Notes: generated from the sequence alone by a model not told the origin. A stretch of DNA of 60,721 nt from Chloroflexota bacterium (GCA_031431395.1 JANPDJ010000001.1:1-60721); one strand, 5' to 3'. Positions 23,358 through 47,506 are shown, counted from the stretch's first letter. Numbers and translations are program-made.

Positions 23358-23419
23358 ATTGATACGTTTGGACTTGAAGATGGACCTGGGCCCACGCCTC
23401 AGGAGGTAACCACAACACC

Positions 23420-31483: not shown

Positions 31484-32638
31484 ATGCGGCCCGTCGTGAC
31501 CCTCATCCTGGTTCCACCGCGTTCGGCGCCCGAACACACGCCGGCCGCCTGGCTCGAGTCGGCACGCGAGGCGGGCGCAGAGCGGCACCGCGCGGCGTTC
31601 AGCCGACTCGGGACGGACGCCCGCGTGGTCCGTGAGCCGCCGGACGGACGCCCGTTCGGGCGGCGACTCCGGGAGTTGGTCGCCCCGATCGCTGCCTCCG
31701 CAGCGCAGCGCCGGGTTGGCCTGATCCTGGTGAGCGGAGGAGCGCTGCCCCTGGCCGACCCCGCGGATCTCGAGGCCTTCGTCGCGACCGCGCGTGCGAC
31801 TGCACGACGGGCGTGCACCAACAGCTTCTACTCGGCCGACGCGATCGCCGTTTCGGACGCGCGCCTCCTCCTCGCCATGCCGGACCTGCCATCCGACAAC
31901 GCCCTGCCACGCTGGCTTGCAGAGGTCGCCGGCATCCCCGTCGCCGGCCTCCGCCACCGGCCCCGGCTGGAGTTCGACATCGACTCGCCGATCGACCTGC
32001 TCCTGCTCGCCCGCGACCAGGGCTGCCCGGCCGAATTCGCGACCCTTGCCGCGGAGATCGCGGCTGCCAACCAGCGGGCTGTCGCCGCGCTCCGGGGAGT
32101 GGCGGCGACCCTCGGCAACCGCCGGGCGGAGGTCGTCGTCTCGGGTCGCACGTCGTCGCGCGCGCTCGCATGGCTGGAGAGCCATGCCAGCTGCCGGGTT
32201 CGCGCTCTCATCGAGGAGCGGGGGCTGAAGGCGAGCACTTCGCTCGCCTTCAGCGGCGACGCCGCGCAGGACCCGACCGACGGTCGCCGGCGTCCGCCGC
32301 GATCCGCGCTGGGCCTGATCCTGGATGCGCGCGGACCGGGTGCCCTGGGCGCAGTCCTAGCTGAGTTGGGCGATGCTGCGGTCATTGACACGCGGGTCCT
32401 GCTGGCCCACCGGCTGGGAGCCGGGGAAGCACGCTGGCCCTCGCTCGCCGACCGCCTGGCGTCCGACCTGCTCCTGCCGGAGGAGATCGCGGACGGCTGG
32501 CTCCGAGAACTCACCCTGGCGGCCCTGGAGGCGCCCATCCCGGTGCTCCTCGGCGGGCACACCCTCGTGGGACCGGGTCTGCCGCTGATCGCAGGCCACG
32601 CCGCCACCTCCGCCCTCGACGCCGCGGACAGAGGCTGA
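31484..32638 (+). CDS. Hypothetical protein; stop overlaps the MidA start (TGATG)
   Basis: Ala/Arg-rich but non-repetitive ORF (LILVSGGALPLADPADLEAFV, NSFYSADAIAVSD). I recognise no family. Start uncertain (ORF begins at 31451). Confidence 0.5.
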   Translation: MRPVVTLILVPPRSAPEHTPAAWLESAREAGAERHRAAFSRLGTDARVVREPPDGRPFGRRLRELVAPIAASAAQRRVGLILVSGGALPLADPADLEAFVATARATARRACTNSFYSADAIAVSDARLLLAMPDLPSDNALPRWLAEVAGIPVAGLRHRPRLEFDIDSPIDLLLLARDQGCPAEFATLAAEIAAANQRAVAALRGVAATLGNRRAEVVVSGRTSSRALAWLESHASCRVRALIEERGLKASTSLAFSGDAAQDPTDGRRRPPRSALGLILDARGPGALGAVLAELGDAAVIDTRVLLAHRLGAGEARWPSLADRLASDLLLPEEIADGWLRELTLAALEAPIPVLLGGHTLVGPGLPLIAGHAATSALDAADRG

Positions 32639-33834
32639 TGGACGGTGGCCTGCGCCGCGATCCGAGGCCGGGTGGCCCGACGCTCCATTCGGATCCGGAC
32701 GTGGTCGCGCTGATCCGGGACGAGATCGCCCGCACTGGCCCGATCACGTTCGCCCGCTTCATGGATCTCGCGCTGTACGCACCGGCCCTGGGCTACTACA
32801 CCTCGCCGCCGACGAGAATCGGGCGGCGAGGCGACTTCCTCACGGCACCCGAAACGCACCCGATCTTCGGCGCAGCGCTCGCCCGGCAGGTCGCCGACGC
32901 CTGGCATCGACTCGGCAGACCGCCGGAGTTCACGGTCCGCGAATACGGGGCTGGTCGGGGCGCTCTCGCCGAGGCGATCATCCGGACCCTCGCGGCCGAC
33001 GAACCGGAACTGGCCCACGCTCTGCGGTACGAGGCCGTGGAGATCAATCCCCATCGCCGGGACGAACTCGTCCGACGCCTCGCCGATGCGCTGCCGGGTG
33101 CGGCCTTCTCAGCCCTTGGTCCCGCGACGGCAGCCGGATCGGCACCGGCGCCCGCCGGGCTCGTCCTCGCAAACGAGTTTCTCGATGCGTTCCCGGTCCA
33201 TCGCGTGGAGCAGACGGCTGGCGGCCTGCGCGAGCTCTACGTGGACTGGCGGGACGAGGCCCTCGTCGACGTGCCGGGGCCGGCCTCGACGCCCCTCCTG
33301 GCCGAGCGGCTGGAAGCCGAAGGGATCCGGTTGGAAGCAGGGCAGCGGGCCGAGATCGCCCTGGGCCTGGACGGCTGGCTGGCCGAGGTGGCCCGCTGGC
33401 TCCGGCGCGGCTTCGTCATCGTCATCGACTACGGCTACCCGGCGGACGACCTGTACGCGCGCCGGCGGCGCGCCGGCACCCTCATGGGCTACGTGGATCA
33501 CCACCCCGTGGACGATCCGCTTGTCGCTGTGGGCCGCCAGGACCTGACAACCCACGTGGACTTCACTGCCGTCGAGCGCGCCGCGACGGCAGCGGGGCTC
33601 ACGACCATCGGGTCCACGACGCAGGCCTCGTTCCTCGTCTCGCTCGGGCTCGAGGACCTGCTGGAGCGGGCCCGGTCAAGCCCGGACCTGCGGCTGGAGG
33701 AATACCTCGAACTGCGGTCGGGCATCGTGCGCCTGCTCGATCCGCGTCACACGGGTGGATTTCGCGTGCTGGTACTGGGCCACGACGCGGACGCCGGGCA
33801 GCCGCTGCTGGGCTTGCACCGAGTTTCGCGGTGA
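32638..33834 (+). CDS. MidA/NDUFAF7-family (DUF185) SAM-dependent methyltransferase
   Basis: ITFARFMDLALYAPALGYY, GDFLTAPETHPIFG, EYGAGRGALA and ANEFLDAFPVHRV are hallmark MidA motifs. Confidence 0.85.
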   Translation: MDGGLRRDPRPGGPTLHSDPDVVALIRDEIARTGPITFARFMDLALYAPALGYYTSPPTRIGRRGDFLTAPETHPIFGAALARQVADAWHRLGRPPEFTVREYGAGRGALAEAIIRTLAADEPELAHALRYEAVEINPHRRDELVRRLADALPGAAFSALGPATAAGSAPAPAGLVLANEFLDAFPVHRVEQTAGGLRELYVDWRDEALVDVPGPASTPLLAERLEAEGIRLEAGQRAEIALGLDGWLAEVARWLRRGFVIVIDYGYPADDLYARRRRAGTLMGYVDHHPVDDPLVAVGRQDLTTHVDFTAVERAATAAGLTTIGSTTQASFLVSLGLEDLLERARSSPDLRLEEYLELRSGIVRLLDPRHTGGFRVLVLGHDADAGQPLLGLHRVSR

Positions 33835-33967: not shown

Positions 33968-34324
33968 GTGACCGGGATCTGGTACATCCTTGGGTTTGCC
34001 TTCGCCGGCCTGTCGTTCGTGTTCCTCACGATCGGCGCGGCATGGCTGATCTCCCATCGGAATCGCGGCGATGTCCACAAGGGCCTGCCGTACGAGAGCG
34101 GGATCGACACGTACGGCGATCCCCACGGGCGGTTCGGCCTGTCCTTCTACATCTATGCGTTGCTGTTCGTCGCGTTCGACATCGAGGTGATCTTCATCTA
34201 CCTCTGGGCGATCGTGTTCCGCGACCTCCTGATGAGCGGCTTCGTGAGCATGCTGATCTTCGTCGCCATCCTCCTGCTCGGCCTCGCCTACGCCTGGCGA
34301 AAGGGCGTCCTCACATGGCGCTGA
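33968..34324 (+). CDS. nuoA: NADH-quinone oxidoreductase subunit A
   Basis: 118 aa, 3 TM helices. [28 protein letters not shown]. Confidence 0.92.
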
Positions 34325-35088
34325 GCGGTCCGGGGGAAGGTGCCACGGGTGATTCGGGCGGGACTCCAGAGAGCGGCGGCGGCATGACGGCCCGTGAGTC
34401 GAGCCGATCCTCCAGCCTGCCGGCCGTCATCGAGACGGGCGACTCGGCCGTCATGGAACCCATCGTGGTCCCGAACACCCTCTGGCAGTCCACCAATCCG
34501 GCCGCGTACAGCGGCGGCACGCCCACCGACATCACGCACCTCCGCGAGCTTGGGCTCACGGAGGCCATGCGCCACAACGATGCCCGCTGGGGCGCCCTCG
34601 AGGTGATCCCCACCAAGGCGGACTACGTCCTGGACCTTCTCCGCGCAAACAGCCTGTGGCCGCTCTTGTCGGGCCTGGCCTGCTGCGCCATCGAGATGAT
34701 GTCGGCGGCCACCAGCAAGAACGACATGGACCGCTGGGGCATGTTCCCGTTCCGCGCCAGCCCGCGCCAGGCGGACGTGCTGATCGTCGCCGGGACGCTC
34801 ACCACCAAGATGGCCGGGCCGCTTGTGCGGCTCTGGGAGCAGATGCCAGAGCCAAAGTGGTGCGTGGCCATGGGCGATTGCACGATCTCCGGCGGCCGGT
34901 ACAAGCGGTCCTACTCCACGGTGGAAGGCATCGACCGCGTGATGCCCGTGGACGTCTATGTCCCCGGCTGCCCGCCCCGCCCGGAGGGCCTCATCTACGG
35001 GATGATGCGGCTCCAGCAGTTGATCAAAGACCGCCGGGGTCACTGGCCCGAGCGGGCGGTCGGCCCAACCGTTCCGGATCGTGTCTAG
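34315..35088 (+). CDS. nuoB: NADH-quinone oxidoreductase subunit B (N2 cluster) with a long N-terminal extension
   Basis: [43 protein letters not shown]. Start uncertain; ATG at 34315 overlaps the nuoA end. Confidence 0.88.
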
Positions 35089-35097: not shown

Positions 35098-35649
35098 ATG
35101 GATCGTGCGCTCAAGCTGCGCCTGGAAGCGCGCTTCACGGATCGGCTGACCGGGCCGGTGCGCCAGCGCCATGACGCGACGGAGATCCGTATCGGGGCCG
35201 GCGACGTGCCGGACACGCTGCGCACCCTCCACGACGACCCGTCGTTCCGGTTCGAGTTCCTGTCGGACCTGGCCGGCGTCGACACGGGGCTCGTCATGCA
35301 GGTCGTGTACCACCTGTGGAGCGAGACCACCTCGGACTGGCTGAGGGTCATCGCGGACGGGCTGTCGCGCGAGGATCCGCGCGTCCCTTCCATCACGTTC
35401 CTCTGGCAGGGCGCGGAGTGGATGGAACGCGAGGCCTACGACATGTTCGGCATCACGTTCGAGGGGAACCGGGACCTGCGGCGGATCTACATGCCCCCGG
35501 ACTACACGAGTTTCCCTCTCCGCAAGGACTTCTTCCTGGCCGACGATGCCGCCCGCTCGCCGGGCGCCGGCGTGCGCCACCAGGAGCAGACCCACACGCC
35601 CCGCAACGCGCCCCCGGGACGCGCCATCCGCGTGGCTAAGGAGGCCTGA
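35098..35649 (+). CDS. nuoC: NADH-quinone oxidoreductase subunit C
   Basis: FEFLSDLAGVD, PSITFLWQGAEWMEREAYDMFGITFEGN.DLRRI. Confidence 0.9.
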   Translation: MDRALKLRLEARFTDRLTGPVRQRHDATEIRIGAGDVPDTLRTLHDDPSFRFEFLSDLAGVDTGLVMQVVYHLWSETTSDWLRVIADGLSREDPRVPSITFLWQGAEWMEREAYDMFGITFEGNRDLRRIYMPPDYTSFPLRKDFFLADDAARSPGAGVRHQEQTHTPRNAPPGRAIRVAKEA

Positions 35650-36882
35650 GTGACCGCTCAACCAGGCTCCGGGACCCGCCGCGCATCCAGCGACGATCCG
35701 CGCGTGATGCTCGACATCGACGCCGGGGCGTACGAGCCGGTGCCGCCGTACCCGCCCCGCACGGAGCGTGAAGCCGAGTTCTACACGCTCGCCGACGGCG
35801 AGATGTTCGTGAACATGGGCCCGCAGCACCCCTCCACGCACGGCGTTCTGCGGGTCGTGCTGAAGCTCCGCGGCGAGCAGGTCGTGGACCTGGACCCCGT
35901 CCTCGGCTACCTCCATCGCGGCGTGGAGAAACTGGCGGAGAACGCGGACTACCACCACACCATCGCCTACATGGACCCGCTCGAGTACATCTCCTCGCTG
36001 TTCTGCGAGTGGCCGGCAGTGATGGCCTTCGAGAAGCTGCTCGACGTGGAGGTGCCCCGTCGCGCGGAGTACATCCGTGTCCTGTCCACGGAGCTGAACC
36101 GGGTCGCCAGCCATGCCCTGTTCATGGGCTGGTTCGCGCTTGACCTGGGCGGCCTGACGCCGGTCCTCTGGAGCTTCATCGAACGCGACGAGATCGTGGA
36201 GATGCTGGGCGCGCTGACCGGGGCGCGGATGCTCTTCAACTACATGCGGATCGGCGGCGTCAACGGAGATCTGAACCACGAGTTCATGAGCCGCCTGGGA
36301 GCGTGGATGAGCCGCGCCGGCACGCATATCGACTCGAACACGAAGCTGCTCAACGAGAACGAGATCTTCGTCCGCCGCTCGCGAGGTCTCGGTGTCGTGG
36401 ACCGCGAGACGGCGGTCCGGATGTGCATGACGGGACCCAACCTGCGCGCAACGGGCGTGCCATTCGACGTCCGCCGCGCACACCCCTACAGCGTGTTTCC
36501 GGAGCTGGACTTCGACATCCCCACACGGACGGAGGGCGATTCGCTCGCACGCTACCTCCTCCGCGTGGACGAGATCAAGCAGAGCCTGCGAATCATCGAC
36601 CAGTGCCTCCACCAGATGCCTGACGGCCCGATCATGGCGAAACTGCCGCGCAGGCTGACACCCCGACCCGGCCGTGCCTACGCTGCCGTGGAGAGCCCCC
36701 GGGGGCAGTACGCCGTGTACGCGATGAGCGACGGCACGGACCAGCCGTTCCGGCTGCGCATCCACGATCCCTCGTTCGTCCATCTCCAGAGCGTCGGCCT
36801 CCTGATGCCGGGCAATCTCGTCGCGGACACGATGGCGATCATGGCCTCGCTGGACCCGGTCATGGGGGGCGTGGACAAGTGA
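35650..36882 (+). CDS. nuoD: NADH-quinone oxidoreductase subunit D
   Basis: NMGPQHPSTHGVLRVVL, GYLHRGVEKL, YMRIGGV, ESPRGQYAVY, DPVMGGVDK. Confidence 0.95.
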   Translation: MTAQPGSGTRRASSDDPRVMLDIDAGAYEPVPPYPPRTEREAEFYTLADGEMFVNMGPQHPSTHGVLRVVLKLRGEQVVDLDPVLGYLHRGVEKLAENADYHHTIAYMDPLEYISSLFCEWPAVMAFEKLLDVEVPRRAEYIRVLSTELNRVASHALFMGWFALDLGGLTPVLWSFIERDEIVEMLGALTGARMLFNYMRIGGVNGDLNHEFMSRLGAWMSRAGTHIDSNTKLLNENEIFVRRSRGLGVVDRETAVRMCMTGPNLRATGVPFDVRRAHPYSVFPELDFDIPTRTEGDSLARYLLRVDEIKQSLRIIDQCLHQMPDGPIMAKLPRRLTPRPGRAYAAVESPRGQYAVYAMSDGTDQPFRLRIHDPSFVHLQSVGLLMPGNLVADTMAIMASLDPVMGGVDK

Positions 36883-36913: not shown

Positions 36914-38254
36914 ATGACGTCCGTTTCGCGCGCCTGGGGCCGGCTGACCCTGCCGGGCAAGATCATCTTCACCCTGGTGCCGCTCCTGCTGGCGATGACG
37001 GTCGGCCTGCTCGTCGCGGTGGTGCTCGTCGGGCCCTACGTCCTGCAGTTCCTGGGCGACAACCTGCCCCTCGTGCGCTTCGTCGTCGCGGCCACGGCCG
37101 TGCTCCTGATGTCGATCCCCACGGCCTTCATCATCATCTACATGGAGATGAAGGTCATCGCGCTGATGAACCTTCGCATCGGACCGGACCGCGTTGGACC
37201 CTACGGGTCGCTCCTGTCGGTGGTCCACGGGCTCAAGGTCCTCATGAAGGAGGACTTCACCCCAACCGGGGCGGATGCGCCCGTGTTCACCCTCGCGCCC
37301 GCCGTGGTCTACCTGGGCGCGGTGATGTCGCTGCTCGTGATTCCGTTCGCCCCGGGGCTCTTCGGGCAGGACTTCAACATCGGCCTGCTGTATTTCTTCG
37401 CGGTGAGCGGCCTCAGTGTCGTCGGCCTGATGATGGCCGGCTGGTCCAGCTACAACAAGTACTCGCTGCTGGGCGGCCTGCGGTCCGCGGCCCAGGTGAT
37501 CAGCTACGAGATCCCGCTCACCCTTTCGGTGGTGGGCCTGCTCCTGCTGGCCGGCACGATGAGCCTCAACACGATCGTCCTCAACCAGTCCGGCACTGCG
37601 CTCGACTGGTACATCTTCCGCCAGCCGCTGGGGTTCCTGATCTTCTTCATCGCCGCGACCGCGGAGGCCAACCGCACGCCGTTCGACCTCACGGAGGCCG
37701 ACTCGGAGATCGTCGCGGGCTTCGCCACGGAGTACTCGGGGATGCGCTTCGGGTTCCTCTTCTTCGCCGAGTACGTCGGGGTGTTCGTCGTTTCTGCGAT
37801 GACGGTGACCCTGTTCTTCGGCGGCTGGAACGCCCCCTTCAACTGGCCGTGGCCGGTCACCGCCAGTCTCGACCCGGGCAGCCTGGGCATCCTGCTACTC
37901 ATCCTGGTCGCCATCGTCCCGGTCCTTGGGACCCTGCTGTTCGCCGCGCCGTTCTGGCTGCTCCGCTCGTCGATGCCGGGCTGGCAGGCGCTGATCATCG
38001 GCTTCCTGATCTTCAATTTCGTGGCCGTGGGAGCTGTCCTCGGGTGGGCATTCATCAGCTTTGACTGGGTCGTGGGTCTGCTCTGGTTTATGCTGAAGAC
38101 CTACGGTTTCGTGTTCACCTTCGTCTGGATGCGGGGGACGTTGCCGCGCGTCCGGATCGACCAGCTGATGGGATTCGCCTGGAAATGGCTGCTGCCCGCC
38201 TCCCTGCTGAACCTGTTCGTGACGGCCGGTGCGCTCATCGTGCTGAACCGCTGA
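36914..38254 (+). CDS. nuoH: NADH-quinone oxidoreductase subunit H (long form)
   Basis: MEMKVIALMNLRIGPDRVGPYG..LKVLMKEDF, AEANRTPFDLTEADSEIVAGFATEYSGMRF. Confidence 0.92.
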   Translation: MTSVSRAWGRLTLPGKIIFTLVPLLLAMTVGLLVAVVLVGPYVLQFLGDNLPLVRFVVAATAVLLMSIPTAFIIIYMEMKVIALMNLRIGPDRVGPYGSLLSVVHGLKVLMKEDFTPTGADAPVFTLAPAVVYLGAVMSLLVIPFAPGLFGQDFNIGLLYFFAVSGLSVVGLMMAGWSSYNKYSLLGGLRSAAQVISYEIPLTLSVVGLLLLAGTMSLNTIVLNQSGTALDWYIFRQPLGFLIFFIAATAEANRTPFDLTEADSEIVAGFATEYSGMRFGFLFFAEYVGVFVVSAMTVTLFFGGWNAPFNWPWPVTASLDPGSLGILLLILVAIVPVLGTLLFAAPFWLLRSSMPGWQALIIGFLIFNFVAVGAVLGWAFISFDWVVGLLWFMLKTYGFVFTFVWMRGTLPRVRIDQLMGFAWKWLLPASLLNLFVTAGALIVLNR

Positions 38255-38312: not shown

Positions 38313-39140
38313 ATGAGCTTCATCCCCGGGATCGGGATCGCAAAGGGCATGGCCCTGACGCTGCTCCGATTCTTCCAGCCCAAGGTGACCATCCGCTACC
38401 CGGAAGTCGCCGCGGATGTCTCCCCGAAGTTCCGGGGCCGCCTGCAGCTCCTCTACGACGAGTGGGGCACGCTCAAGTGCGAGACCTGCTTCCAGTGCGC
38501 GCAGGCCTGCCCCATCGAGTGCATCGACATGGGCGGGACGGACACCAAGGGCCGGTATCACGTCCACTGGGGCGCGGCGGAAACGTACGGCGAGCGGCGC
38601 GATGAATCCGCGCTGCGGCGTTCGGGCAGGCCGGTCCCGGACGAGGCCTACAGCCACGATCAGCCCATGAATCTCGAGGCCGTGGACGCGATCCTCGCGG
38701 CGTATGACCACGATCCAGGGTCGATGCTCCAGATCCTGGGCGACGTGCAGGACACCTACGGCTACCTGCCCGTGGCGGCGCTGAAGCGGATCAGCACGTC
38801 CACCGGTGCCTGGTACGCGATGATCTACGGTACTGCGTCGTACTACCGCCATCTGCGATTCGATCCGCCGGGCCAGTCCGTCGGCATCTGCCGCTGCACG
38901 AGCTGCCTGATCAGCGGGGGTGGTCGGATCCAGGAGGCGCTGGAACGCGGGCTCCGGGCCAGCCTCGGCAAGACTCCGTTGAGCGGCGGGATCCGGCTGG
39001 AACAGCTGCCCAACCATGTCGCGGGCGCGTCATCGCCTCTCGTGATGGTCGCCGGCGAGCCCGTCGCACTGACGCCGGAAACGGCGGAGCCCTGGGCTCG
39101 TGGCCTGGCGCCACAGTCCGGCACCCGGGCACAGGCCTGA
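38313..39140 (+). CDS. Fusion protein: NuoI N-terminal half (one 4Fe-4S motif) + NuoE-like thioredoxin-fold domain
   Basis: Residues 1-88: PKVTIRYPE, KFRGRL, and C56-x2-C59-x2-C62-x3-C66-P (38478-38513). A second ferredoxin motif is absent in all frames. Residues ~118-250: YDHDPGSMLQILGDVQDTYGYLP..IYGTASYYRHLRFDPPGQSVGICRCTSCLISGG (NuoE-like). Confidence 0.8.
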   Translation: MSFIPGIGIAKGMALTLLRFFQPKVTIRYPEVAADVSPKFRGRLQLLYDEWGTLKCETCFQCAQACPIECIDMGGTDTKGRYHVHWGAAETYGERRDESALRRSGRPVPDEAYSHDQPMNLEAVDAILAAYDHDPGSMLQILGDVQDTYGYLPVAALKRISTSTGAWYAMIYGTASYYRHLRFDPPGQSVGICRCTSCLISGGGRIQEALERGLRASLGKTPLSGGIRLEQLPNHVAGASSPLVMVAGEPVALTPETAEPWARGLAPQSGTRAQA

Positions 39141-39144
39141 GGTC

Positions 39145-40476
39145 ATGACAACGCTGCTCGCCACACCGGCCGGCTGGCCGCAGATCCTGCTGGCACGAGC
39201 CAGGAAAGCCGCGCCCGTCGGCAGCCCCGGCTCGGCGACGGCGACCGGCCCGTTCGCAGGACTCCGGATCGCGATCGAGCGGCTCGGCCCGGAAGGCACG
39301 ATCAGAGCGATCGAGCAGTCGGGCCTGCGCGGCCGAGGTGGGGCAGGCTTTCCCACCGGCACGAAATGGCGCAAGGCCGCCGCCACCGAGGCATCGCGCC
39401 GGTACGTCGTCGCCAACGGATACGGCGCCGATCCGGCCGTCTCCATCGACCAGGTCCTCATGGAGCGGGACCCGTTCGGGCTGCTTGAGGGCGTCGCCAT
39501 CGCCGCGTACGCAATCGGCGCGTCCGAGGCCGTCATCGCGGTGCGCGCGGAATACGCGGAGGCCGCCCGCGGACTGGAGGCCGCCATCCTGGCGGCAGAG
39601 GCAGCCGGGTTCCTGGGCGCGGACATCCTGAGCTCGGGCGTCGATCTGACCGTCACGGTCCGGACCGTGCAGGGCGCCTACATGCTGGGCGAGGAGACGG
39701 TCCTCCTGAAGGCCCTCGAAGGCAAGCGCGGGCAGCCGGAACAGCGGCCGCCGCACCCGGCGGAGCGGGGGATGTTCGGGCAGCCCACGGTCGTCCAGAA
39801 CATCGCCACCCTGATCGCCGTCCCGTGGATCCTCGTGAACGGCGCGGAGGCGTGGCGGGCCATCGGCACGCCGGACGCACCCGGAACCGTGCTCGTCCAG
39901 GTCAGCGGCGCGGCCGCGAACGGGATCGCGGAGGTGCCCACGGGCACCACCTTGGCGCAGATCATCGACCTTGCGGGCGGCGTGGTGCCGGGCCGTCGGG
40001 TGAAGGCAGTCCTCGTCGGCGGGCCATCCGGCGGGCTCCTGCCGGCGACGGCACTGGACACCCCGTATGACTTCGGGCCGTTGCGCGCCGCGGGCGCCCA
40101 CGTGGGCTCTGGCTCCATCGTGGTCGCCGACGAGCGGACGTGCGTGGTGGACCTGGCTCGCCTCCTGACGGCGTTCTGCGCCGACGAGGCATGCGGCAAG
40201 ACCATCCCGTGCCGGATCGGGACACGCCGGATCGCCGAGATCGGGGACCGCGTGACGAGCGGTCGGCCGCGCCCCACGGACCTGCAGCTCCTGGCGGACC
40301 TCAGCCATGATGTGGTCGCGTCCGCGCTATGCGATCACGAGCGCCTGGCGACCCTTCCGTACGCCAGCGCGATGCGATACTTCCGCTCCGAGCTCGACGA
40401 CCACGTTCTCCGCAGCTCCTGCCCGGCCGGTGTCTGCCGCCCCATCGCGGTGGCCGGCGTTGCGGCGGGCTACTGA
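39145..40476 (+). CDS. nuoF: NuoF-like subunit with divergent FMN/NADH and N3-cluster signatures
   Basis: GLRGRGGAGFPTGTKW, QGAYMLGEETVLLKALEGKRGQPEQRPPHP, PTVVQNIAT. However, it has ANGYGADPAVS in place of CNADESEPGT, and C350-GK-T353-IP-C356...C396 in place of CxxCxxC...C. Confidence 0.85.
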   Translation: MTTLLATPAGWPQILLARARKAAPVGSPGSATATGPFAGLRIAIERLGPEGTIRAIEQSGLRGRGGAGFPTGTKWRKAAATEASRRYVVANGYGADPAVSIDQVLMERDPFGLLEGVAIAAYAIGASEAVIAVRAEYAEAARGLEAAILAAEAAGFLGADILSSGVDLTVTVRTVQGAYMLGEETVLLKALEGKRGQPEQRPPHPAERGMFGQPTVVQNIATLIAVPWILVNGAEAWRAIGTPDAPGTVLVQVSGAAANGIAEVPTGTTLAQIIDLAGGVVPGRRVKAVLVGGPSGGLLPATALDTPYDFGPLRAAGAHVGSGSIVVADERTCVVDLARLLTAFCADEACGKTIPCRIGTRRIAEIGDRVTSGRPRPTDLQLLADLSHDVVASALCDHERLATLPYASAMRYFRSELDDHVLRSSCPAGVCRPIAVAGVAAGY

Positions 40477-40485: not shown

Positions 40486-43080
40486 ATGACCGATCTCGCC
40501 ATCCGACCCAGAGCCACGCTCGATCCCCTCGCGCATGCCGAGACGCTGCTGGACACCCAGGCGCCGCAGCGGCCGACGGCCACGCCCCGGATCCGGATCG
40601 AGGTGGACGGGCGCGTCGTGGAAGGCCTGGAGGGCCAGACCATCCTCGAGGTCTGTCGCGACAACGGCATCGAGATCCCCACGCTCTGCTACGAGCCCAA
40701 GCTGCCGGGCTTCGGGGCATGCCGGATGTGCGTCGTCGAGGTGGAGGGCGAGGAGCATCCGCCCATCTCCTGCTCGCGCGCCTGCGAAGACGGCATGAAG
40801 GTCCAGACGCAGACGGAAGAGGTGCGGCGCCTCCGCCGGACCAACCTCGAGCTGATCTTCAGCGACCACAACGCGTACTGCCTGCCGCCGTGCCAGAACA
40901 AGTGCCCCAGCCACATCGACATCCCGGGCTTCCTGAAGCAGAACGCGGAGGCGAACTGGCGCGAGTCCGTGCGGATCTTCAAGCGGACCATCCCGTTCCC
41001 TTCGGTCCTGGGGCGGGTCTGTCCAGCCCCGTGCGAGGAGCACTGCCGTCGCGACGAGGTGGACGAGGCGATCGCGATCCGCGACTCGCACCGATATGCC
41101 GGCGACCAGGTGATCAGGGCGATGCTCAACGAGAACGTGGACCCGCCGGTCCCGTTCGAGGTCCAGCCCCGGAGCGGACGCCGGATCGCCGTGATCGGAT
41201 CCGGGCCGGCGGGCGCCACCGCTGCGTACTACCTCCTGATCGCCGGCCACGACGTGACCATCTTCGAACGGGACCCCATGCCGGGCGGGATGCTCCGCTA
41301 CGGCATCCCGCAGTACCGGCTTCCCAAGGTGGAGGTCCTCGAGGCGGAGTACGAGGGCATCGTGCGGCTCGGCGGCCGGTTCGTGACGAACCAGGGCCTC
41401 GGGCGCGATTTCACGCTGGACGACCTGCAGAACCAGGGGTTCGACGCGGTCTGCGTCGCCATCGGCTGCTACGACACGAACAAGCTGGGGATCCCCGGCG
41501 AAGACGGCACCGGCGTCATCGACGGCCTGGACTACCTGCGCACGGCCACCCTGGGCCTCGAATACCCGGGCCACGCCGGGAGCCGCGTCGTGGTCATCGG
41601 CGGCGGCTTCACCTCGATGGACTGCACCCGCACGTCCGTCCGGCTGGGCGCGGCGGAGGTCACGCTGGTCTACCGGCGCGACATGAAGGACATGCCCGCC
41701 TCCGACGAGGTGCACGAGGCCATCGAGGAAGGCGCCACGGCGATCTTCCAGGCGGGCCCGGTCCGGATCGTGACCGACGCCACCAACACGGTCACGGGCG
41801 TGGAGTTCATCCGGATGAAGCTTGGCGAGCCGGATGCGTCCGGTCGCCGCCGCCCGGAGCCTGCCCCCGGTACCGAGTTCACGATCCCGTGCGACCGCGT
41901 CCTCCTGGCCATCGGCCAGGGCCCGGACCTGACATGGATCGGCCCCGGCTCCGATGGACCGAAGGCCAGCAAGCAGCGCCGCCTCGTTGCCGACGCGGTC
42001 ACCTTCGAGACCGGACGGCCGGGTGTCTTCGGCACAGGTGACGTGCGCATCGGCGCGGCGACCGTCGTGCAGGCCATCGCGGAGGGCCGCCGGGCCGCCT
42101 ATGCCGTGGATGCGTACGTCAAGGGCCTGGACCTGGCCGCCATCCGGACCCGCCAGACGCTGGCCGAGCCCCAGCCCGAGTTCCTGTCCATCGTGCCGTT
42201 CACCAGCGAGATCAAGGAGCCCCGCATCCGCCTGAAGAAGATGGAGGCGGAGGCCAGGAATCGCAGTTACATCGAGTACGAGATCCCCTACACGCGGGCC
42301 GAGGCGGTCGCGGAGTCCACGCGCTGCCTCCAGTGCACCTGCGAGGCGATCGGCTTCTGCGACCTGCGGCGGCTGGGGATCGAGTACGGCACAACCCTTG
42401 CGACGCTCGAGCCGCACCACAACTCCGGTGCAGGCTACCGCTCCGTGACCGAGAACCGGTTCACCGGCTACAACCACGACTACATCCGCGATGACTCACA
42501 CGCGTTCATCCTGCGCGAGCCGTCCCGCTGCATCGACTGCGGCCGTTGCGCGCAGGTCTGCTCGGAAGTGGTGGGCGCGGCCTGCTACGACTTCATGCGG
42601 ATCGGCTTCGACACCCTGGTGACGACGCCGCTGGATATGAGCCTCAACGACACGCCGTGCGTCTCGTGCGGCCGCTGCGCCGAGACCTGCCCCACGGGCG
42701 CGCTCATGCCCAAACCGCGGGTGCTGCAGAAGTACGAGGTCGACGAAAGCCGCTGCATCCTGTGCGGCATCTGCGTGGACGCCTGCCCGTATGACGCGCT
42801 CCGCGACAGCACGGAATTCGAGCTGTCCCACGAGTCGCGGGCAGAACCCATGATCGACCTGCTGTCCTACTCCGCCGTCAACCAGGAGACGGAAGTCACG
42901 TACATCCGGCGCGAGCGCGACTGGGCGGAGCGCGCCATGGCGGACGGCCGGCTGCTGGACACCGGACGCCTGCTGCCGATGCTGCCGGCGTCCATCGCGA
43001 ACGGCAACGGGAATGGACATGGCAACGGCCACGCGCACGACCACGGAGGCGCGGGCGCCACCGCGGGGCGGCACAAGTAA
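40486..43080 (+). CDS. Chimeric Fe-S flavoprotein: NuoG-type 2Fe-2S N-terminus + GltD-like FAD/NAD(P)H domain + 2x[4Fe-4S] region + NuoI C-terminal half
   Basis: - 2Fe-2S: TLCYEPKLPGFGACRMCVVEV...SC.
- GltD part: SDHNAYCLPPCQNKCPSHIDIPGFL, GRVCPAPCEEHC, IAVIGSGPAGATAAYYL, GGMLRYGIPQYRLPK, VVVIGGGFTSMDC, VFGTGDV.
- 2x[4Fe-4S]: RCIDCGRCAQVC and CVSCGRCAETCPTGAL.
- NuoI-like end: KYEVDESRCILCGICVDACPYDAL..FEL...DLL.
- No molybdopterin-like NuoG body. Confidence 0.85.
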   Translation: MTDLAIRPRATLDPLAHAETLLDTQAPQRPTATPRIRIEVDGRVVEGLEGQTILEVCRDNGIEIPTLCYEPKLPGFGACRMCVVEVEGEEHPPISCSRACEDGMKVQTQTEEVRRLRRTNLELIFSDHNAYCLPPCQNKCPSHIDIPGFLKQNAEANWRESVRIFKRTIPFPSVLGRVCPAPCEEHCRRDEVDEAIAIRDSHRYAGDQVIRAMLNENVDPPVPFEVQPRSGRRIAVIGSGPAGATAAYYLLIAGHDVTIFERDPMPGGMLRYGIPQYRLPKVEVLEAEYEGIVRLGGRFVTNQGLGRDFTLDDLQNQGFDAVCVAIGCYDTNKLGIPGEDGTGVIDGLDYLRTATLGLEYPGHAGSRVVVIGGGFTSMDCTRTSVRLGAAEVTLVYRRDMKDMPASDEVHEAIEEGATAIFQAGPVRIVTDATNTVTGVEFIRMKLGEPDASGRRRPEPAPGTEFTIPCDRVLLAIGQGPDLTWIGPGSDGPKASKQRRLVADAVTFETGRPGVFGTGDVRIGAATVVQAIAEGRRAAYAVDAYVKGLDLAAIRTRQTLAEPQPEFLSIVPFTSEIKEPRIRLKKMEAEARNRSYIEYEIPYTRAEAVAESTRCLQCTCEAIGFCDLRRLGIEYGTTLATLEPHHNSGAGYRSVTENRFTGYNHDYIRDDSHAFILREPSRCIDCGRCAQVCSEVVGAACYDFMRIGFDTLVTTPLDMSLNDTPCVSCGRCAETCPTGALMPKPRVLQKYEVDESRCILCGICVDACPYDALRDSTEFELSHESRAEPMIDLLSYSAVNQETEVTYIRRERDWAERAMADGRLLDTGRLLPMLPASIANGNGNGHGNGHAHDHGGAGATAGRHK

Positions 43081-43154: not shown

Positions 43155-43691
43155 TTGGCGATCCCGTCAACCGTGCCGTTCATCGGGCTGAGCTGGGACG
43201 ACGTGCTGTTCCTGCTCTTTGCGACCACGATGATCGGGACGGCTCTGCTTGTCGTGTCGATGCGCGACATCATTCGCTGCGGCCTGGCGATGATGGCGTC
43301 ATTCGGCGCACTCGCCGGCATCTACGTCCTGCTGGGCGCCCCGCTCGTGGCTGCAGCCCAGGTACTGATCTACATCGGCGCCATCGCGGTTCTCATCCTG
43401 TTCGCCATCATGCTCACCCAGTCGAAGGCCGCGCCCGCCCGCCTCGTGTTCCAGACGCAGGCAGTTCCGGCCGGCATCGCCGCCGTGATCCTCGCCGTGG
43501 TCATCGCATTGACGGTCACGGCCACGGACTGGGGCGCGGTCACGAGCCGCCTCGGCACCGCGACGGACGAACTTGCGAGGCTGCTCTTCCGTGACTACGT
43601 GCTGCCGTTCGAGATCGTCAGCGTCCTGCTGCTGGCCGCGGTCATCGGCGGGGTATTCCTCGCGAAGCGCGAGGAAGGCGGGCCGCAATGA
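43155..43691 (+). CDS. nuoJ: NADH-quinone oxidoreductase subunit J
   Basis: TTG start after a purine-rich SD. AAAQVLIYIGAIAVLILFAIML, FEIVSVLLLAAVIG. Confidence 0.88.
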   Translation: MAIPSTVPFIGLSWDDVLFLLFATTMIGTALLVVSMRDIIRCGLAMMASFGALAGIYVLLGAPLVAAAQVLIYIGAIAVLILFAIMLTQSKAAPARLVFQTQAVPAGIAAVILAVVIALTVTATDWGAVTSRLGTATDELARLLFRDYVLPFEIVSVLLLAAVIGGVFLAKREEGGPQ

Positions 43692-43999
43692 GCAACTCGC
43701 TCGACGCCTACCTCGTGCTGTCCGGGATCATCTTTGCCATCGGCACATTCGGCTTCCTGGCGCGCCGGAACGCCATCAGCATGCTCATGTCCATCGAACT
43801 CATGCTGAATGCCGTCAACCTCGCGATCGTCGCGTTCGGGTCGTTCGTGGAGGCGCTCAGGACGGCGTCCTCCGTCATCGCACTGATCGTGATGGCCGTC
43901 GCGGCGGCGGAAGCCACCGTGGGCCTCGCGATCGTGATCGCCATCTACCGCAACCGCCGCACGCCGCTGGTCGATGAGTACGACACGCTGCGCCAGTAA
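43688..43999 (+). CDS. nuoK: NADH-quinone oxidoreductase subunit K
   Basis: 103 aa. MLMSIELMLNAVNLA, AAAEATVGLAIVIAIYR. ATGA overlap with nuoJ. Confidence 0.92.
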   Translation: MSNSLDAYLVLSGIIFAIGTFGFLARRNAISMLMSIELMLNAVNLAIVAFGSFVEALRTASSVIALIVMAVAAAEATVGLAIVIAIYRNRRTPLVDEYDTLRQ

Positions 44000-44014: not shown

Positions 44015-45964
44015 ATGGAGACCCTGATCCCGCTCATTCCGGCCCTGCCCCTGGCCGGGTTCGTCTTCACCGGGCTGTTCGGCCGGCGGCTGGGCAAGCG
44101 CGCCTCACTCGTGCCCGTGCTTGCGGTCGTGGCCTCCTGGATGATCGCCATGGTGGTCGTCTACAACGCGCTCACCGGCTCGGGCGCCTTCGCGGGCGGC
44201 CAGGGCGTGGAGGTCCACCTCTGGAACTGGATCCCGGCGGGCGCGTTCCAGGTCCAGTTCGGCTTCTACGCGGACAACCTCACGGCCTGCCTCCTGATCG
44301 TGGTCACCACGATCGGCATGCTCGTGCACGTCTACTCGCTCGGATACATGAGCCACGACCCCGGGTACTGGCGCTTCTTCGCCTACCTGAACCTGTTCAT
44401 GTTCTCGATGCTGCTCCTGGTCCTCGCGGACAACTTCCTGCTCGTATTCGCGGGCTGGGAGCTGGTGGGCCTGTCCAGCTACCTGCTCATCGGGTTCTGG
44501 TACCGCAGGCGGTCGGCCGCCCTTGCCGCCAAGAAGGCCTTCATCGTGAACCGCGTCGGAGACGTGGGGTTCGCCCTGGGGATCATGGCGATCTTCGTGT
44601 CGCTGGGCACGCTCAACATCCGCGAAGTCATCGAGCGGATCGGCACCCTCGACCACACTCAGATCACGGTGATCGCCCTGCTGCTCTTCGCGGGCGCCAT
44701 GGGCAAGAGCGCCCAGTTCCCGCTCCACGTGTGGCTCCCGGACGCGATGGAGGGCCCCACGCCCGTGTCCGCCCTGATCCACGCGGCGACGATGGTCAAC
44801 GCGGGCGTCTACCTGGTGGCCCGGGCGAACCCGATCTTCGCCCACGCGCCGGAGGCGATGGTGGTGGTCGCGGCCGTCGGCATCTTCACCGCAATCCTGG
44901 CCGCGTCCATCGCGTTCACCCAGACCGACATCAAGCGTGTGCTCGCGTACTCCACGCTGAGCCAGCTGGGCTACATGTTCGCCGCGCTCGGCGTGGGAGC
45001 ATGGACGGCGGCCATCTTCCATCTCATGTCGCACGGCTTCTTCAAGGGCCTGCTGTTCCTTGATTCGGGCTCGGTGATCCACGCCGTGGACGGGGAACAG
45101 GACATGCGCCGGATGGGTGGACTGCGCCGCCGGATCCCCATCACGTACGCGACGATGTTCATCGGGTCCGTGGCCATCTCCGGCATCCCACCCCTCGCCG
45201 GTTTCTTCAGCAAGGACGAGATCCTGGGCGAGGCCTTCAAGAACGGCTTCCTGTGGGTCTGGGCCATCGGCCTCCTCGTGGCTGGCATGACGGCGTTCTA
45301 CATGTTCCGGCTCATGGGCCTCACGTTCTGGGGCAAGAGCCGCGTGGACCCGGCCGTCGAGCCGCACATTCATGAGTCACCGCGATCCATGACCCTGCCG
45401 CTGCTCGTCCTGGCCGTCCCGAGCGTCCTCCTCGGCCTGGCGATCGGCTGGCCCCTCGGGAGCGGCCAGCTCCGCACCTGGCTCGAGCCCGTGTTCCACG
45501 AAGCGGTGGAGCTCGCGGCGCGCCCGGAAGCCGCGTATGCCTTCTTCGGGGTTGACGGCGCCCTCCTGATCACGAGCGTCGCCGTGGCCACCCTGGGAAT
45601 CATCGGCGCGTGGGCGCTCTTCGGACTCGAGCTCCCGGGCATCCGGCGCGCCGGCAACCCGGATCGCGTCCGCAGCCTCGCGGGCCGGATGCCGTTCCTG
45701 TACCGCGCGTCGCTCAACAAATGGTGGTTCGACGAGCTCTACGACCTCCTGTTCATCCGCATCGGCGGCCGGATCGCGGCCTTCCTCTGGTGGTTCGACC
45801 GGGCGGTGGTGGACGGAACGGTGAACGGCGTGGGGGCGCTCACCGCGGACGCCGGGCGCGGCCTGCGGCGCTTCCAGACCGGCCACGTGCAGAACTACGC
45901 CCTCGGCATCGCGATCGGCCTGATCGTCATGGCGGGCGGCTATCTCGTGATTGCGGGGCGGTAG
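44015..45964 (+). CDS. nuoL: NADH-quinone oxidoreductase subunit L
   Basis: FAGWELVGLSSYLLIGFW, GKSAQFPLHVWLPDAMEGPTPVSALIHAATMV, and a C-terminal lateral-helix region. Confidence 0.95.
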   Translation: METLIPLIPALPLAGFVFTGLFGRRLGKRASLVPVLAVVASWMIAMVVVYNALTGSGAFAGGQGVEVHLWNWIPAGAFQVQFGFYADNLTACLLIVVTTIGMLVHVYSLGYMSHDPGYWRFFAYLNLFMFSMLLLVLADNFLLVFAGWELVGLSSYLLIGFWYRRRSAALAAKKAFIVNRVGDVGFALGIMAIFVSLGTLNIREVIERIGTLDHTQITVIALLLFAGAMGKSAQFPLHVWLPDAMEGPTPVSALIHAATMVNAGVYLVARANPIFAHAPEAMVVVAAVGIFTAILAASIAFTQTDIKRVLAYSTLSQLGYMFAALGVGAWTAAIFHLMSHGFFKGLLFLDSGSVIHAVDGEQDMRRMGGLRRRIPITYATMFIGSVAISGIPPLAGFFSKDEILGEAFKNGFLWVWAIGLLVAGMTAFYMFRLMGLTFWGKSRVDPAVEPHIHESPRSMTLPLLVLAVPSVLLGLAIGWPLGSGQLRTWLEPVFHEAVELAARPEAAYAFFGVDGALLITSVAVATLGIIGAWALFGLELPGIRRAGNPDRVRSLAGRMPFLYRASLNKWWFDELYDLLFIRIGGRIAAFLWWFDRAVVDGTVNGVGALTADAGRGLRRFQTGHVQNYALGIAIGLIVMAGGYLVIAGR

Positions 45965-45967: not shown

Positions 45968-47506
45968 ATGGACATCACCGGCCTGCCGATCCTGACGCTG
46001 ATCACCTTCGCGCCGCTGGTGGGGGCGATCCTCATCGCGTTCATCCCGCGAAGCAGCGCCGGCCTGGTCCGGGCAACGGCACTGGGGACGAGCCTTGTGT
46101 CGTGGGCGCTGTCGCTGTTCCTGCTCGTTGGTTTCCTGCCCTCGCACCCGAACTTCCAGTTCGTGGAGCGGGCGGACTGGATCTCCGCATTCGGGATCCA
46201 GTACAAGCTTGGCGTTGACGGCCTCTCGCTCGTCATGGTGGTTCTGACCACCACGCTCACGTGGATCTCGATCCTCGCCAGCTTCGGGCCGATCAAGGAA
46301 CGGGTGAAGGAGTACATGATCTCCTTCCTCATCCTCGAGGTCGGCATGCTCGGCGTGTTCGTTGCCCTCGACCTGTTCCTCTTCTACATCTTCTTCGAGA
46401 TCGTTCTCGTGCCGATGTACCTGATCATCGGCATCTGGGGCGGGGCAAACCGCATCTACGCGACGATCAAGTTCGTCCTGTACACGCTGGTGGGCTCTCT
46501 GCTGATGCTGGTGGGCATCCTGGCCACCGCATTCGCCTTCCAGGCGGCGCACGGGGGCAACTGGGCGGGAGCCTTCGACTACGAGACGCTGCGCCAGTTC
46601 AGCTTCGACAGCACCCTGCAGTTGTTCGCATTCCTCGCCTTCTTCCTGGCGTTTGCGATCAAGATCCCGATGTTCCCGTTCCACACGTGGCTGCCCGACG
46701 CCCACGTGGAGGCTCCCACCGCCGGCTCCGTGATCCTGGCGGGGGTTCTCCTCAAGCTGGGTGGATACGGGTTCATCCGTTTCGCGGTTCCGCTCTTCCC
46801 CGAGGCCGCCCATACCTACGCGCCGGCGATCATCCTGCTGAGCGTCATCGCGATCATCTACGGGGCCATCGTGGCTCTCGTCCAACCAGACCTGAAGAAG
46901 CTGGTGGCCTATTCATCGGTCAGCCACATGGGCTTCGTGACGCTGGGCATCTTCGTGTTCCAGGAGCAGGGACTCCAGGGCGCGATCCTGCAGATGGTCA
47001 ACCACGGGCTGATCACGGGCGCGCTGTTCCTCCTCGTCGGGGTGCTCTACGAGCGGACCCACGACCGGACGATTGCGAAGATGGGCGGGCTTTCGGCGCA
47101 GATGCCCGTCTATGCCGTCGCCTTCGGGTTCTTCATGCTGGCCTCGGCCGGGTTGCCCGGGCTCTCCGGCTTCATCGGCGAGTTCCTCGTCTTCGTGGGC
47201 TCCTTCGCGTATTCCCCGGCCGTCGCGGCAGCGTCAACGATCGTGATGGTCTTTGCCGCCGGGTACCTGCTCTGGATGTTCCAGCGGATGTTCTTCGGCG
47301 AACTGTCTGACTTCTTCAAGAACGCCATCGGCCACCTCGACGACCTGCGGCCGACGGAAGTGCTGACGCTGGTCCCGCTCGGCGTGCTGGTTGTCGTCTT
47401 CGGCCTGTTCCCGGGCCTCCTTCTCACGCTTGTCCAGGGCACGGTCACGGAGGTGCTCCACGGCGCCGCACAGGCGAGCGCCATCAACCTGGCGTTCTGG
47501 CAGTAG
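45968..47506 (+). CDS. nuoM: NADH-quinone oxidoreductase subunit M
   Basis: FYIFFEIVLVPMYLIIGIWGG, KIPMFPFHTWLPDAHVEAPTAGSVILAGVLLK. Confidence 0.95.
   Translation: MDITGLPILTLITFAPLVGAILIAFIPRSSAGLVRATALGTSLVSWALSLFLLVGFLPSHPNFQFVERADWISAFGIQYKLGVDGLSLVMVVLTTTLTWISILASFGPIKERVKEYMISFLILEVGMLGVFVALDLFLFYIFFEIVLVPMYLIIGIWGGANRIYATIKFVLYTLVGSLLMLVGILATAFAFQAAHGGNWAGAFDYETLRQFSFDSTLQLFAFLAFFLAFAIKIPMFPFHTWLPDAHVEAPTAGSVILAGVLLKLGGYGFIRFAVPLFPEAAHTYAPAIILLSVIAIIYGAIVALVQPDLKKLVAYSSVSHMGFVTLGIFVFQEQGLQGAILQMVNHGLITGALFLLVGVLYERTHDRTIAKMGGLSAQMPVYAVAFGFFMLASAGLPGLSGFIGEFLVFVGSFAYSPAVAAASTIVMVFAAGYLLWMFQRMFFGELSDFFKNAIGHLDDLRPTEVLTLVPLGVLVVVFGLFPGLLLTLVQGTVTEVLHGAAQASAINLAFWQ

Follow-up and report, generated by a model that had tools for sequence, protein, structure and literature searches.

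Complex I is generally regarded as having one of a few input modules: NuoEFG for NADH, FpoF for F420H2, the ferredoxin-binding subunits of NDH-1, and the proposed Bfu module. Here, we analyzed a nuo operon on a 60,721-nucleotide stretch of DNA from a Chloroflexota bacterium (GCA_031431395.1, JANPDJ010000001.1:1-60721), referred to below, at its full 60.7-kb length, as the window. At the center of the analysis is the gene at 39145..40476 (+ strand, as are all nuo genes below), identified from Pfam, PDB, and Foldseek matches as encoding a NuoF-like/NfnB-StnB-like flavoprotein of 443 amino acids (aa). An earlier note on this gene, made from the sequence alone, described its signature for flavin mononucleotide (FMN) and NADH as eroded and one cysteine of the N3 cluster as missing, and suggested that the subunit may be a structural or electron-relay remnant rather than the NADH site. 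In our comparisons, the nearest relative of the protein is NfnB/StnB, a subunit of NADPH:NAD/ferredoxin transhydrogenases, rather than respiratory NuoF, and the protein belongs to a family in which the altered residues are fixed.

A NuoF-like core related to NfnB and StnB

The start codon of the gene (ATG, 39145) is preceded by GAGG, and the stop codon of the upstream gene (39138-40) lies 4 bases before it. Matches to Complex1_51K (2.6e-40, 138 bits), SLBB (19 bits, below the 27-bit cutoff), and NADH_4Fe-4S (1.2e-19, 70 bits) give the product the domain architecture that defines NuoF at ~430-450 aa. The NuoF equivalog cutoffs are all missed (TIGR01959, 364.7 versus 558.65 bits; NF010120, 269 versus 389; NF008436, 269 versus 749). 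The best sequence match in the PDB is StnB of Sporomusa StnABC (8oh5_B, 3.5e-106), and HydB and NfnB are also matched; the best match to a respiratory NuoF, that of M. smegmatis (8e-86), is weaker than that to StnB. An AlphaFold2 model (predicted local distance difference test [pLDDT] score, 75; predicted template modeling score, 0.80), used for fold search only, returned NfnB chains 9n5u_B and 9bov_B as top Foldseek matches (TMq 0.85).

The protein covers the BfuB core only, with residues ~35-435 corresponding to StnB 125-527 and the chain ending at residue 443. No Fer4 or 2Fe-2S_thioredx Pfam match was found in it, indicating that the C-terminal domain with two [4Fe-4S] clusters (B3/B4) and the thioredoxin-like domain at the N terminus (B5) are absent. 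What it shares with NfnB/StnB (NfnABC is equivalent to StnABC; PDB 8oh5, 9bov, and 9n5u) is a core of Rossmann, ubiquitin-like, and four-helix-bundle parts, Gly-loop residues 60-70, the GGPSG loop, the Glu that selects for NADH, an Asp ahead of Pro (StnB D186), and the Zn ligands. NfnB/StnB differs in having the B5 and B3/B4 domains, the AFM motif, F281, Asp195, a Glu, and a four-Cys B1 cluster, none of which the window protein has. At the AFM position, residues 99-101 read V-S/F-I/T, and the Phe of GAF.CGEE (F281) is replaced by Tyr at position 179; both the AFM motif and that Phe have been reported as absent from nonbifurcating enzymes. Respiratory NuoF/Nqo1/NDUFV1, for its part, resembles the window protein in its Pfam domains, its length of ~440 aa, the lack of extra domains, its place in a nuo operon beside NuoE-like and NuoG-N-like proteins, and Tyr179 (GAY..GEE), the latter as in nonbifurcating enzymes. 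It differs in that it reads CNADE(S/G)EPG where the window protein reads ANGYGADPA and has one more N3 Cys, and the window protein is closer to the Bfu clade.

One part of the bifurcating enzymes that does persist is the ligand set of the linker site B2, a Zn site of three Cys and one His. The linker here carries H420...C426...C431 (40402..40437), which together with C333 (40141-40143) are invariant and are predicted to form the same metal site; they map to the Tsi NfnB Zn ligands C437, H524, C529, and C534 by an offset of ~104 that was derived from the ligand positions rather than from a printed alignment.

Flavin pocket and cluster N3/B1

Translation and the raw bases bear out what the earlier note had read at both altered motifs. 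Bases 39412..39453 (GCC AAC GGA TAC GGC GCC GAT CCG GCC GTC TCC ATC GAC CAG) encode ANGYGADPAVSIDQ at residues 90-103, where relatives have CNADEGDPGAFMDR, and bases 40192..40212 (TGC GGC AAG ACC ATC CCG TGC) encode CGKTIPC, in which the second Cys of the N3/B1 motif C350-G-K-T353-I-P-C356 is replaced by Thr353 (ACC, 40201-40203). The fourth ligand, C396 (codon 40330-40332), and the nearby C345 (40177-40179) are also as described, and the motifs called kept, GLRGRGGAGFPTG, GAYMLGEE, and QPEQRPPHP, are present. Residue-by-residue HMMER alignments to StnB (8oh5_B) and HydB (8a6t_B and 7q4w_B) place VCNADEGDPGAFMDR opposite VANGYGADPAVSIDQ and ESCGKCxxCRxG opposite EACGKTIPCRIG; because both motif regions are gap-free in these alignments, no other gap placement can bring back the canonical residues of the acidic loop or of N3.

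Conservation was assessed in a set of the 120 closest database homologs (62-99% pairwise identity; mean, 74%), using column conservation with permutation rather than dN/dS, synonymous sites being saturated between sequences this far apart. In the remodeled loop, N91, A95, D96, P97, and D102 occur in 120/120 homologs and G92, Y93, and G94 in 117-119. Position 353 is Thr in 109, Ser in 11, and Cys in none, while C345, C350, C356, and C396, with the D-H-E-R-L that follows it, are found in every homolog. Conservation is higher at the 13 changed positions than in the remaining protein (mean, 0.96 versus 0.81; permutation p=0.003), so that "eroded" is not an apt description of them. Patterns derived from the homologs, CGK[TS]IPCRI and S[AG]LCDHERL, were scanned over a collection with one genome per species and matched at least 584 loci in these species-representative genomes. 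All 80 loci retrieved from the scan (80/80) belong to uncultured genomes, nearly all labeled Chloroflexota, Chloroflexia, or Candidatus Limnocylindrales/Limnocylindria. A pseudogene, recent decay, or a sequencing artifact is effectively ruled out by this fixation in homologs and loci, by the intact 443-codon open reading frame (ORF), by a GC content at third codon positions (GC3) of 0.89, like that of the neighbor genes, and by the Thr353 codon ACC, which is two bases away from any Cys codon.

Contacts for FMN and NAD(H) can be followed through the pocket. The glycine-rich loop GLRGRGGAGFPTG (residues 60-72, 39322..39360; alignment and conservation) is, over residues 60-70 (GLRGRGGAGFP), identical to loop 1 of Csac NfnB (150-GLRGRGGAGFP-160), and its L61, R62, G63, G65, G66, and G68 are invariant; K74 (39364-39366), which corresponds to Csac K164 and Aae K76, is kept in 119/120 homologs. 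YMLGEE (39679..39696) contains the flavin-stacking Y179 (119/120; Aae Y180) and the adenosine-ribose E183/E184, both invariant. E184 is the equivalent of Tsi NfnB E286, which binds adenosine O2'/O3' and confers selectivity for NADH over NADPH. RPPHP (39745..39759), assigned from conservation and published contacts, provides the NADH phosphate and adenine contacts R201 (Arg in 117 homologs and Lys in 3; Tsi R303, Aae K202) and H204 (His, Tyr, or Phe; Aae Y205, Csac F294), and the adenine sandwich positions F69 and H/Y/F204 remain aromatic. The GGPSG loop (residues 292-296, 40018..40032), equivalent to Tsi NfnB GGPSG 396-400, is invariant at four of its five residues (G292, G293, P294, and G296), and loop 3 (the GSGS loop, G317-S324) is conserved. 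Over 30 FMN/NAD(H) contact positions, mean conservation is 0.92 versus 0.81 for the remainder (p=0.0015), and the contacts are largely kept even in lineages only ~45% identical.

The remodeled acidic flavin/nicotinamide loop stands apart from these elements. In the gap-free alignment, N91, D96, P97, and D102 are the sole residues kept of the canonical CNADE(S/G)(E/D)PG(T/A)xKDR; D96 (StnB D186, Nqo1 E97) and D102 (Aae D103) are invariant. Y93 occupies the place of Tsi NfnB D195 (Thermus D94), described in the archaeal Nfn paper as a negative charge beside FMN; throughout the clade, Tyr, Phe, Ile, or Met is found at this position. Gly94 replaces Aquifex E95/StnB E184, whose backbone sits against the nicotinamide; the Aquifex NuoEF papers give contact roles for Glu95 and Asp103 and none for Asp94. 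NNVET has also become QNVQT, and the AFM segment has changed. Taken with the conserved contacts, the pocket most likely retains FMN and NAD(H) binding, with less negative charge around the isoalloxazine. In flavoenzymes in general, and reportedly in E. coli NuoF E95 mutants, less negative charge should raise the flavin potential and disfavor NAD+ reduction. Since Asp to Tyr93 and Glu to Gly94 remove two negative charges beside the isoalloxazine, the flavin potential should rise here.

At N3/B1, the four positions that would hold a [4Fe-4S] cluster are C350, T353, C356, and C396, and the flank of the fourth ligand is specific to the family (C396-D-H-E-R-L, 40330..40347, all six residues in 120/120, versus the canonical CGLGQT). 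At position 353, where Limnocylindria have Thr or Ser, a sister lineage from soil metagenomes has an invariant Ala (CGKAVPC, EACGKAVPCRIG), with Ser or Ala at 345 and the other three N3 Cys kept, and the closest four-Cys outgroup (P0241, 53% identity) has the motif ANGIEADPGAFVDR. Because wider relatives retain all four N3 Cys, the loss of the ligand took place inside this operon type, and two different residues have come in its stead. The motif matches the [3Fe-4S] signature CxxXxxC...C, with a non-Cys second position, as a signature only. Ferredoxins with CXX(A/G)XXC are the classical [3Fe-4S] proteins, and characterized ferredoxins with Thr, Ser, His, Asn, Tyr, or Phe at the second Cys were all isolated as [3Fe-4S] (PMC6237146). 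These single-cluster proteins (CXX(A/G/T/S/H/N/Y/F)XXC(X)nCP; M. marinum Fdx1-11 and classical 7Fe/3Fe ferredoxins) share the second-Cys replacement and differ in having a bacterial ferredoxin fold and a CP at the fourth Cys, whereas the motif here lies in a NuoF four-helix bundle and lacks the CP. We consider the chances about evenly balanced that N3/B1 is a [3Fe-4S] cluster of higher potential held by three Cys.

Distinctly less probable, in our estimate, is that the cluster stays [4Fe-4S] with the missing Cys replaced by C345, the hydroxyl of Thr/Ser353, or Asp397, an arrangement that would fit a functional or a nonfunctional flavin site alike. C345, D397, and H398 are indeed present in 120/120 homologs, position 353 always has a hydroxyl residue in the family, and non-Cys ligation of 4Fe clusters is known (Asp in P. 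furiosus ferredoxin; Lys or Glu in the NfnA/NfnL cluster). The sister lineage, however, combines Ala353 and Ser/Ala345 with an unchanged operon and with the three remaining Cys, so neither C345 nor a hydroxyl is needed. A C345-equivalent Cys also occurs in some Bfu-type homologs that have all four N3 Cys and thus need not be a cluster ligand, and the Thr- and Ser-motif ferredoxins isolated as 3Fe (PMC6237146) point the same way. H398 was rejected as a special ligand because E. coli-type NuoF also has a His there (C-A-H). Two other assignments of C345 were discarded: as the counterpart of C476, the extra Cys at the B2 site of NiFe-HydB, which the offset puts at T371/S372, and as a third Zn ligand, since the numbering offset puts the Zn Cys at C333.

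An Nfn/Stn-type module within a split nuoI

The gene lies in an operon with the order nuoABCDH-[NuoI N-half+NuoE-like]-F-[2Fe2S+GltD+Fer4+NuoI C-half]-JKLMN, established from Pfam and PDB matches. It comprises nuoA (33968-34324; assigned by position and because L001, the 3.68-Mb chromosome of a relative, has an Oxidored_q4 gene there), nuoB (34315-35088; start inferred), nuoC (35098-35649), nuoD (35650-36882), nuoH (36914-38254), a fusion gene (38313..39140), the NuoF-like gene, a gene for an 864-aa subunit (40486..43080), nuoJ (43155-43691), nuoK (43688-43999), nuoL (44015-45964), nuoM (45968-47506), and nuoN (47515-48978). Of these, nuoB, nuoC, nuoD, nuoH, nuoJ, and nuoK were recognized by Pfam, and nuoL, nuoM, and nuoN by homology and position (L001 annotation and tblastn). 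The same gene order is found in L001 and in the sister lineage, and in essentially all 80 genome loci, where deviations correspond to contig or flank truncation or to cross-matches among L, M, and N. More distant Chloroflexota have nuoABCDH-[NuoI N-half + helical part of NuoE only]-F-[large subunit] without adjacent JKLMN. For comparison, the order in respiratory operons is ABCDEFGHIJKLMN versus ABCDH-I'/E-F-G'/I''-JKLMN here.

The 275-aa fusion protein, assigned from PDB matches, joins the N-terminal half of NuoI (residues 9-93, with C56xxC59xxC62xxxC66P) to a domain resembling NfnC/StnA/HydC/NuoE (residues 116-263). Residues 10-73, with the first CxxCxxCxxxCP, match NuoI 8qby_I 18-81, residues 129-263 match NfnC 9n5u_C (1.1e-16), and the NCBIfam matches to NuoI and NuoE are both subthreshold. 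The NuoE-like domain keeps C193-x4-C198, and the canonical Cys3 and Cys4 align to Asn and Ala, leaving the four-Cys [2Fe-2S] site C1 incomplete. C193, C195, and C198 (38889-38906) and H235 (39015-39017) are invariant across 121 orthologs and could form a Zn site, as B2/B5 of Nfn, or a modified cluster. Wider relatives in the Chloroflexota (L082-L084) have this domain with its thioredoxin-like part entirely deleted.

The 864-aa subunit combines, by Pfam (Fer2_4, Fer4_20, Pyr_redox_2, Fer4_Nqo3, and Fer4) and PDB matches, a [2Fe-2S] domain (NuoG N1b/NfnA A1), a GltD/NfnL domain for flavin adenine dinucleotide (FAD) and NADPH with two [4Fe-4S] clusters, further 4Fe-4S motifs, and the C-terminal half of NuoI. 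Its residues 36-767 are collinear with NfnA 9bov_A 4-699 (4e-161), and StnC 8oh5_C is also matched (2e-144), so the protein has the full set of parts of an Nfn/Stn large subunit up to the ferredoxin-like clusters. NfnA/StnC differs in continuing into a C-terminal Fdh/molybdopterin-like domain; the window subunit ends ~100 residues past the last shared Fer4 and carries half a NuoI in that place. Across five lineages, no change is seen in any of the Cys motifs, in GxGxxG, or in YRR, nor in the four Cys of the N-terminal [2Fe-2S] cluster that would link F to the chain. The GltD-bearing subunit, the most conserved of the module, is very likely a real nucleotide entry site and probably the main one.

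The C-terminal NuoI half (residues ~745-800; 42718-42885) has the second motif and the FEL segment and matches 8qby_I 93-145. The NCBIfam NuoI matches of both fusion proteins are half-length and subthreshold, and the two CxxCxxCxxxCP motifs are on separate polypeptides. No intact nuoI was found in the 60.7-kb window, in which a motif scan recovered only four CxxCxxCxxxC motifs. Since the two halves flank the module and no intact nuoI is present, an Nfn/Stn-type three-gene module appears to have been inserted into nuoI of an 11-subunit-type operon (ABCDH-I-JKLMN). If both halves are assembled into the complex, N6a/N6b must reassemble across two polypeptides. The partner subunits thus have their homologs in NfnC/StnA and in NfnA/StnC, the latter likewise GltD bearing; NfnABC/StnABC differs in being soluble, while the module here sits in a nuo operon and would be membrane bound.

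Protein identity to the window's subunits, calculated over the 80 loci (L002-L081), is uneven. F (68%) and the fusion of NuoI N-half and NuoE-like domain (67-74%) are the least conserved hydrophilic subunits, and the GltD subunit (84%), NuoB (84%), and NuoD (82%) are the most conserved, which points to weaker constraint on the F/E pair than on the NADPH branch. In ordinary complex I, the pattern is the opposite, with the 51-kDa subunit among the best-conserved subunits.

Several other features of the operon were observed. After the NuoI C-half, the 864-aa protein has an Asn/Gly/His-rich tail (NGNGNGHGNGHAHDHG...; ~42997-43077), longer in L001 and absent in wider relatives, which may be metal binding or low complexity. 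In the sister lineage (L109, L110, and L113), the interval between the GltD subunit gene and nuoJ holds ~2.4 kb of extra sequence, and a second match to the NuoI-C/Fer4 region at 12445-12666 of L113 may be an additional ferredoxin-like gene. NuoB, of 257 aa, has a long Gly/Ser/Thr-rich N-terminal extension, with the Oxidored_q6 match starting ~120 residues in and the start overlapping the end of nuoA; NuoH, of 446 aa, has extra sequence relative to the 298-position Pfam model.

Directly upstream of nuoA is a Methyltransf_28 (PF02636) gene (32638-33834, +), with the same synteny in L001. This is the family of NDUFAF7/MidA, arginine methyltransferases that act in complex I assembly, and the gene may encode a bacterial assembly factor placed next to the complex I operon. 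Two long high-GC3 ORFs, at 31451-32638 (+, 395 aa) and 56125-57690 (-, 521 aa), have no Pfam match at E<=1e-6; the former has the glpX FBPase gene on one side and the methyltransferase gene on the other. Other genes of the window are of housekeeping type and include tandem AA_permease_2 paralogs (6228-8282 and 8348-10429), a two-gene (split) glycine dehydrogenase gcvP (12230-15309), and a Lon-DnaJ-ClpB chaperone/protease cluster (19292-26152).

Proposed role of the NuoF-like subunit in complex I

The observed homology, architecture, conservation, and loss of bifurcation parts lead us to favor, at roughly even chances, the view that the gene is a conserved lineage-specific NfnB/StnB (BfuB) derivative that acts as a retuned, nonbifurcating FMN/NADH side entry of an Nfn-module complex I. 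An NfnB/StnB-type flavoprotein would have been cut down to its NuoF-like core and become part of a proton-pumping complex I in Limnocylindria and their relatives among the Chloroflexota. The input module would be a domesticated, no-longer-bifurcating Nfn/Stn transhydrogenase, made up of the NuoE-like domain, the NuoF-like subunit, and the [2Fe-2S]+GltD-FAD+4Fe-4S subunit. With its genes inserted in nuoI, the N-half fused to the NuoE-like domain and the C-half to the GltD subunit could tether the module to N6a/N6b.

From these parts we infer cofactor occupancy, cluster type, direction, and the relative flux of the two entries. Electrons would enter mainly from NADPH at the GltD FAD; the pair of 4Fe-4S clusters in GltD and those of ferredoxin type would carry them to N6a/N6b of the NuoI halves, from which they would reach N2 and menaquinone. 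The NuoF-like subunit, joined to this chain by the conserved [2Fe-2S] cluster via the three-Cys cluster and FMN, would be a second, NADH-specific entry tuned to run one way. Fewer flavin-side charges and a higher-potential [3Fe-4S] cluster would together favor NADH oxidation and disfavor back-reduction of NAD+ by NADPH-derived electrons. Put together as one proposal, this is an undescribed complex I with an Nfn/Stn module spliced into a split NuoI, NADPH as primary donor via the GltD FAD, and NADH as donor via a decharged FMN and a [3Fe-4S] cluster in place of N3; in that full form, it is tentative and less likely than not.

Some of our results limit the case for a functional NADH entry or weigh against it. 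The structural model of the protein is of moderate confidence (pLDDT 75), with low values at residues 91-100, 387-399 (pLDDT <50), and 425-443. In wider relatives, Tyr180 is replaced by Phe and Asp103 by Gly or Ala. The low conservation of F relative to the other subunits suggests a less critical role for it. Finally, two nucleotide sites, if wired together, would amount to an uncoupled transhydrogenase, so one site might have been silenced.

These points bear on the suggestion of the earlier note. Worked out in full, that reading would make the NuoF-like subunit a scaffold, passive relay, or dead end left from an Nfn/Stn ancestor that no longer oxidizes NADH, in a complex I that accepts NADPH only, by way of the GltD FAD. 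Part of that suggestion stands: a complete GltD/NfnL domain adjoins and is probably the main nucleotide entry, and both acidic residues beside flavin and nicotinamide are lost, as are one N3 Cys and two of the four [2Fe-2S] Cys of the NuoE-like partner, whose thioredoxin-like part is deleted in some lineages. It is also kept alive by the faster evolution of F and its E-like partner relative to the GltD subunit, NuoB, and NuoD. Off-path clusters are known in this class of enzymes, the C1/C2 branch of StnC having been described as a nonfunctional evolutionary remnant, and silencing one site could avert an uncoupled short circuit from NADPH to NAD+. What does not fit is the pattern of constraint. 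Solvent-exposed K74, E184, and R201, the aromatic residues at 69 and 204, the Gly loop, GGPSG, and D96 are near-invariant over 62-99% identity with no evident structural role, and the same contacts are largely kept at ~45% identity. The changed residues are not drifting but have been remodeled and fixed by selection, and the [2Fe-2S] cluster that would link F to the chain keeps 4/4 Cys across distant lineages. A precedent for a remnant is NqrA of Na+-NQR, a structural subunit with a NuoF/RnfC-like fold and no cofactor; in NqrA, the Gly-rich loop and the residues contacting the nucleotide are gone, and these are invariant or nearly so here. Because the FMN/NAD(H) contacts are near-invariant without an obvious structural role and the linking [2Fe-2S] cluster is kept, a pure structural remnant is the less likely reading of F, possible but rather doubtful.

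The remaining explanations require either more or other chemistry at the site. A working bifurcating BfuB, as in a "Nuo-Bfu" that oxidizes NADH and reduced ferredoxin and has been proposed for Geobacter, Kuenenia, and Nitrospina, would agree with the closest relatives being bifurcating BfuB proteins, with the retained B2 Zn ligands, and with the existence of Nuo-Bfu operons. We think this very improbable: the B3/B4 ferredoxin domain, deletion of which abolishes bifurcation in T. kivui HydABC, is absent, as is B5, the AFM and F281 signatures are not kept, and the C1 ligands are lost. With C1 lost or altered and B3/B4/B5 absent, electrons could leave the FMN by one route only, and no bifurcation is to be expected. 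The pocket could instead have been respecified for another ligand (another flavin or deazaflavin, or another nucleotide) or could use NAD(H) as a regulatory redox sensor, given the clade-wide swap of the flavin-side Asp for an aromatic or hydrophobic residue, the QNVQT and AFM-segment changes, and nucleotide contacts kept without the catalytic acids. The Gly loop for the FMN phosphate and ribityl and the NADH-selective Glu are canonical, however, and nothing points to another cofactor, which makes this an improbable account.

The nearest described arrangement is Nuo-Bfu/NUO-2 (Geobacter, Kuenenia, and Nitrospina NuoF2), likewise a complex I with NuoEFG replaced by a Bfu-type module. It differs in having a BfuB with extra [2Fe-2S] and 2x[4Fe-4S] domains, a NuoG/Fdh-like BfuA without GltD, an intact separate NuoI, and ferredoxin as a proposed cosubstrate. 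NuoF2 has been described as lacking a canonical FMN site, and "Nuo-Bfu" was described by Schut 2022. According to Spero 2015, 13 of the 14 nuo genes are present in many Chloroflexi, which are "missing only NuoG," a count that the Nfn-module and split-NuoI architecture explains. Searches of open-access papers turned up no account of a split NuoI, nor of an Nfn/GltD-type module attached to complex I, which is not proof of novelty; the complex I variant of Limnocylindria-type Chloroflexota is apparently undescribed.

If the proposal is correct, FAD, a 3Fe cluster, and dual NADPH/NADH specificity would all be firsts for a complex I. An uncultured lineage of soils and fresh waters, both large and abundant, would then have a different solution for electron input, an NADPH-FAD and NuoF-like module tethered by a split NuoI. 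If NADPH feeds the proton-pumping complex I directly, energy and redox-balance models of these organisms would have to change, as would annotation pipelines that call them "complex I lacking NuoG." The NuoF-like subunit would, furthermore, offer a natural experiment in how FMN-side acids and N3 ligation relate to flavin potential and reversibility and in how a bifurcating enzyme is converted to a simple dehydrogenase.

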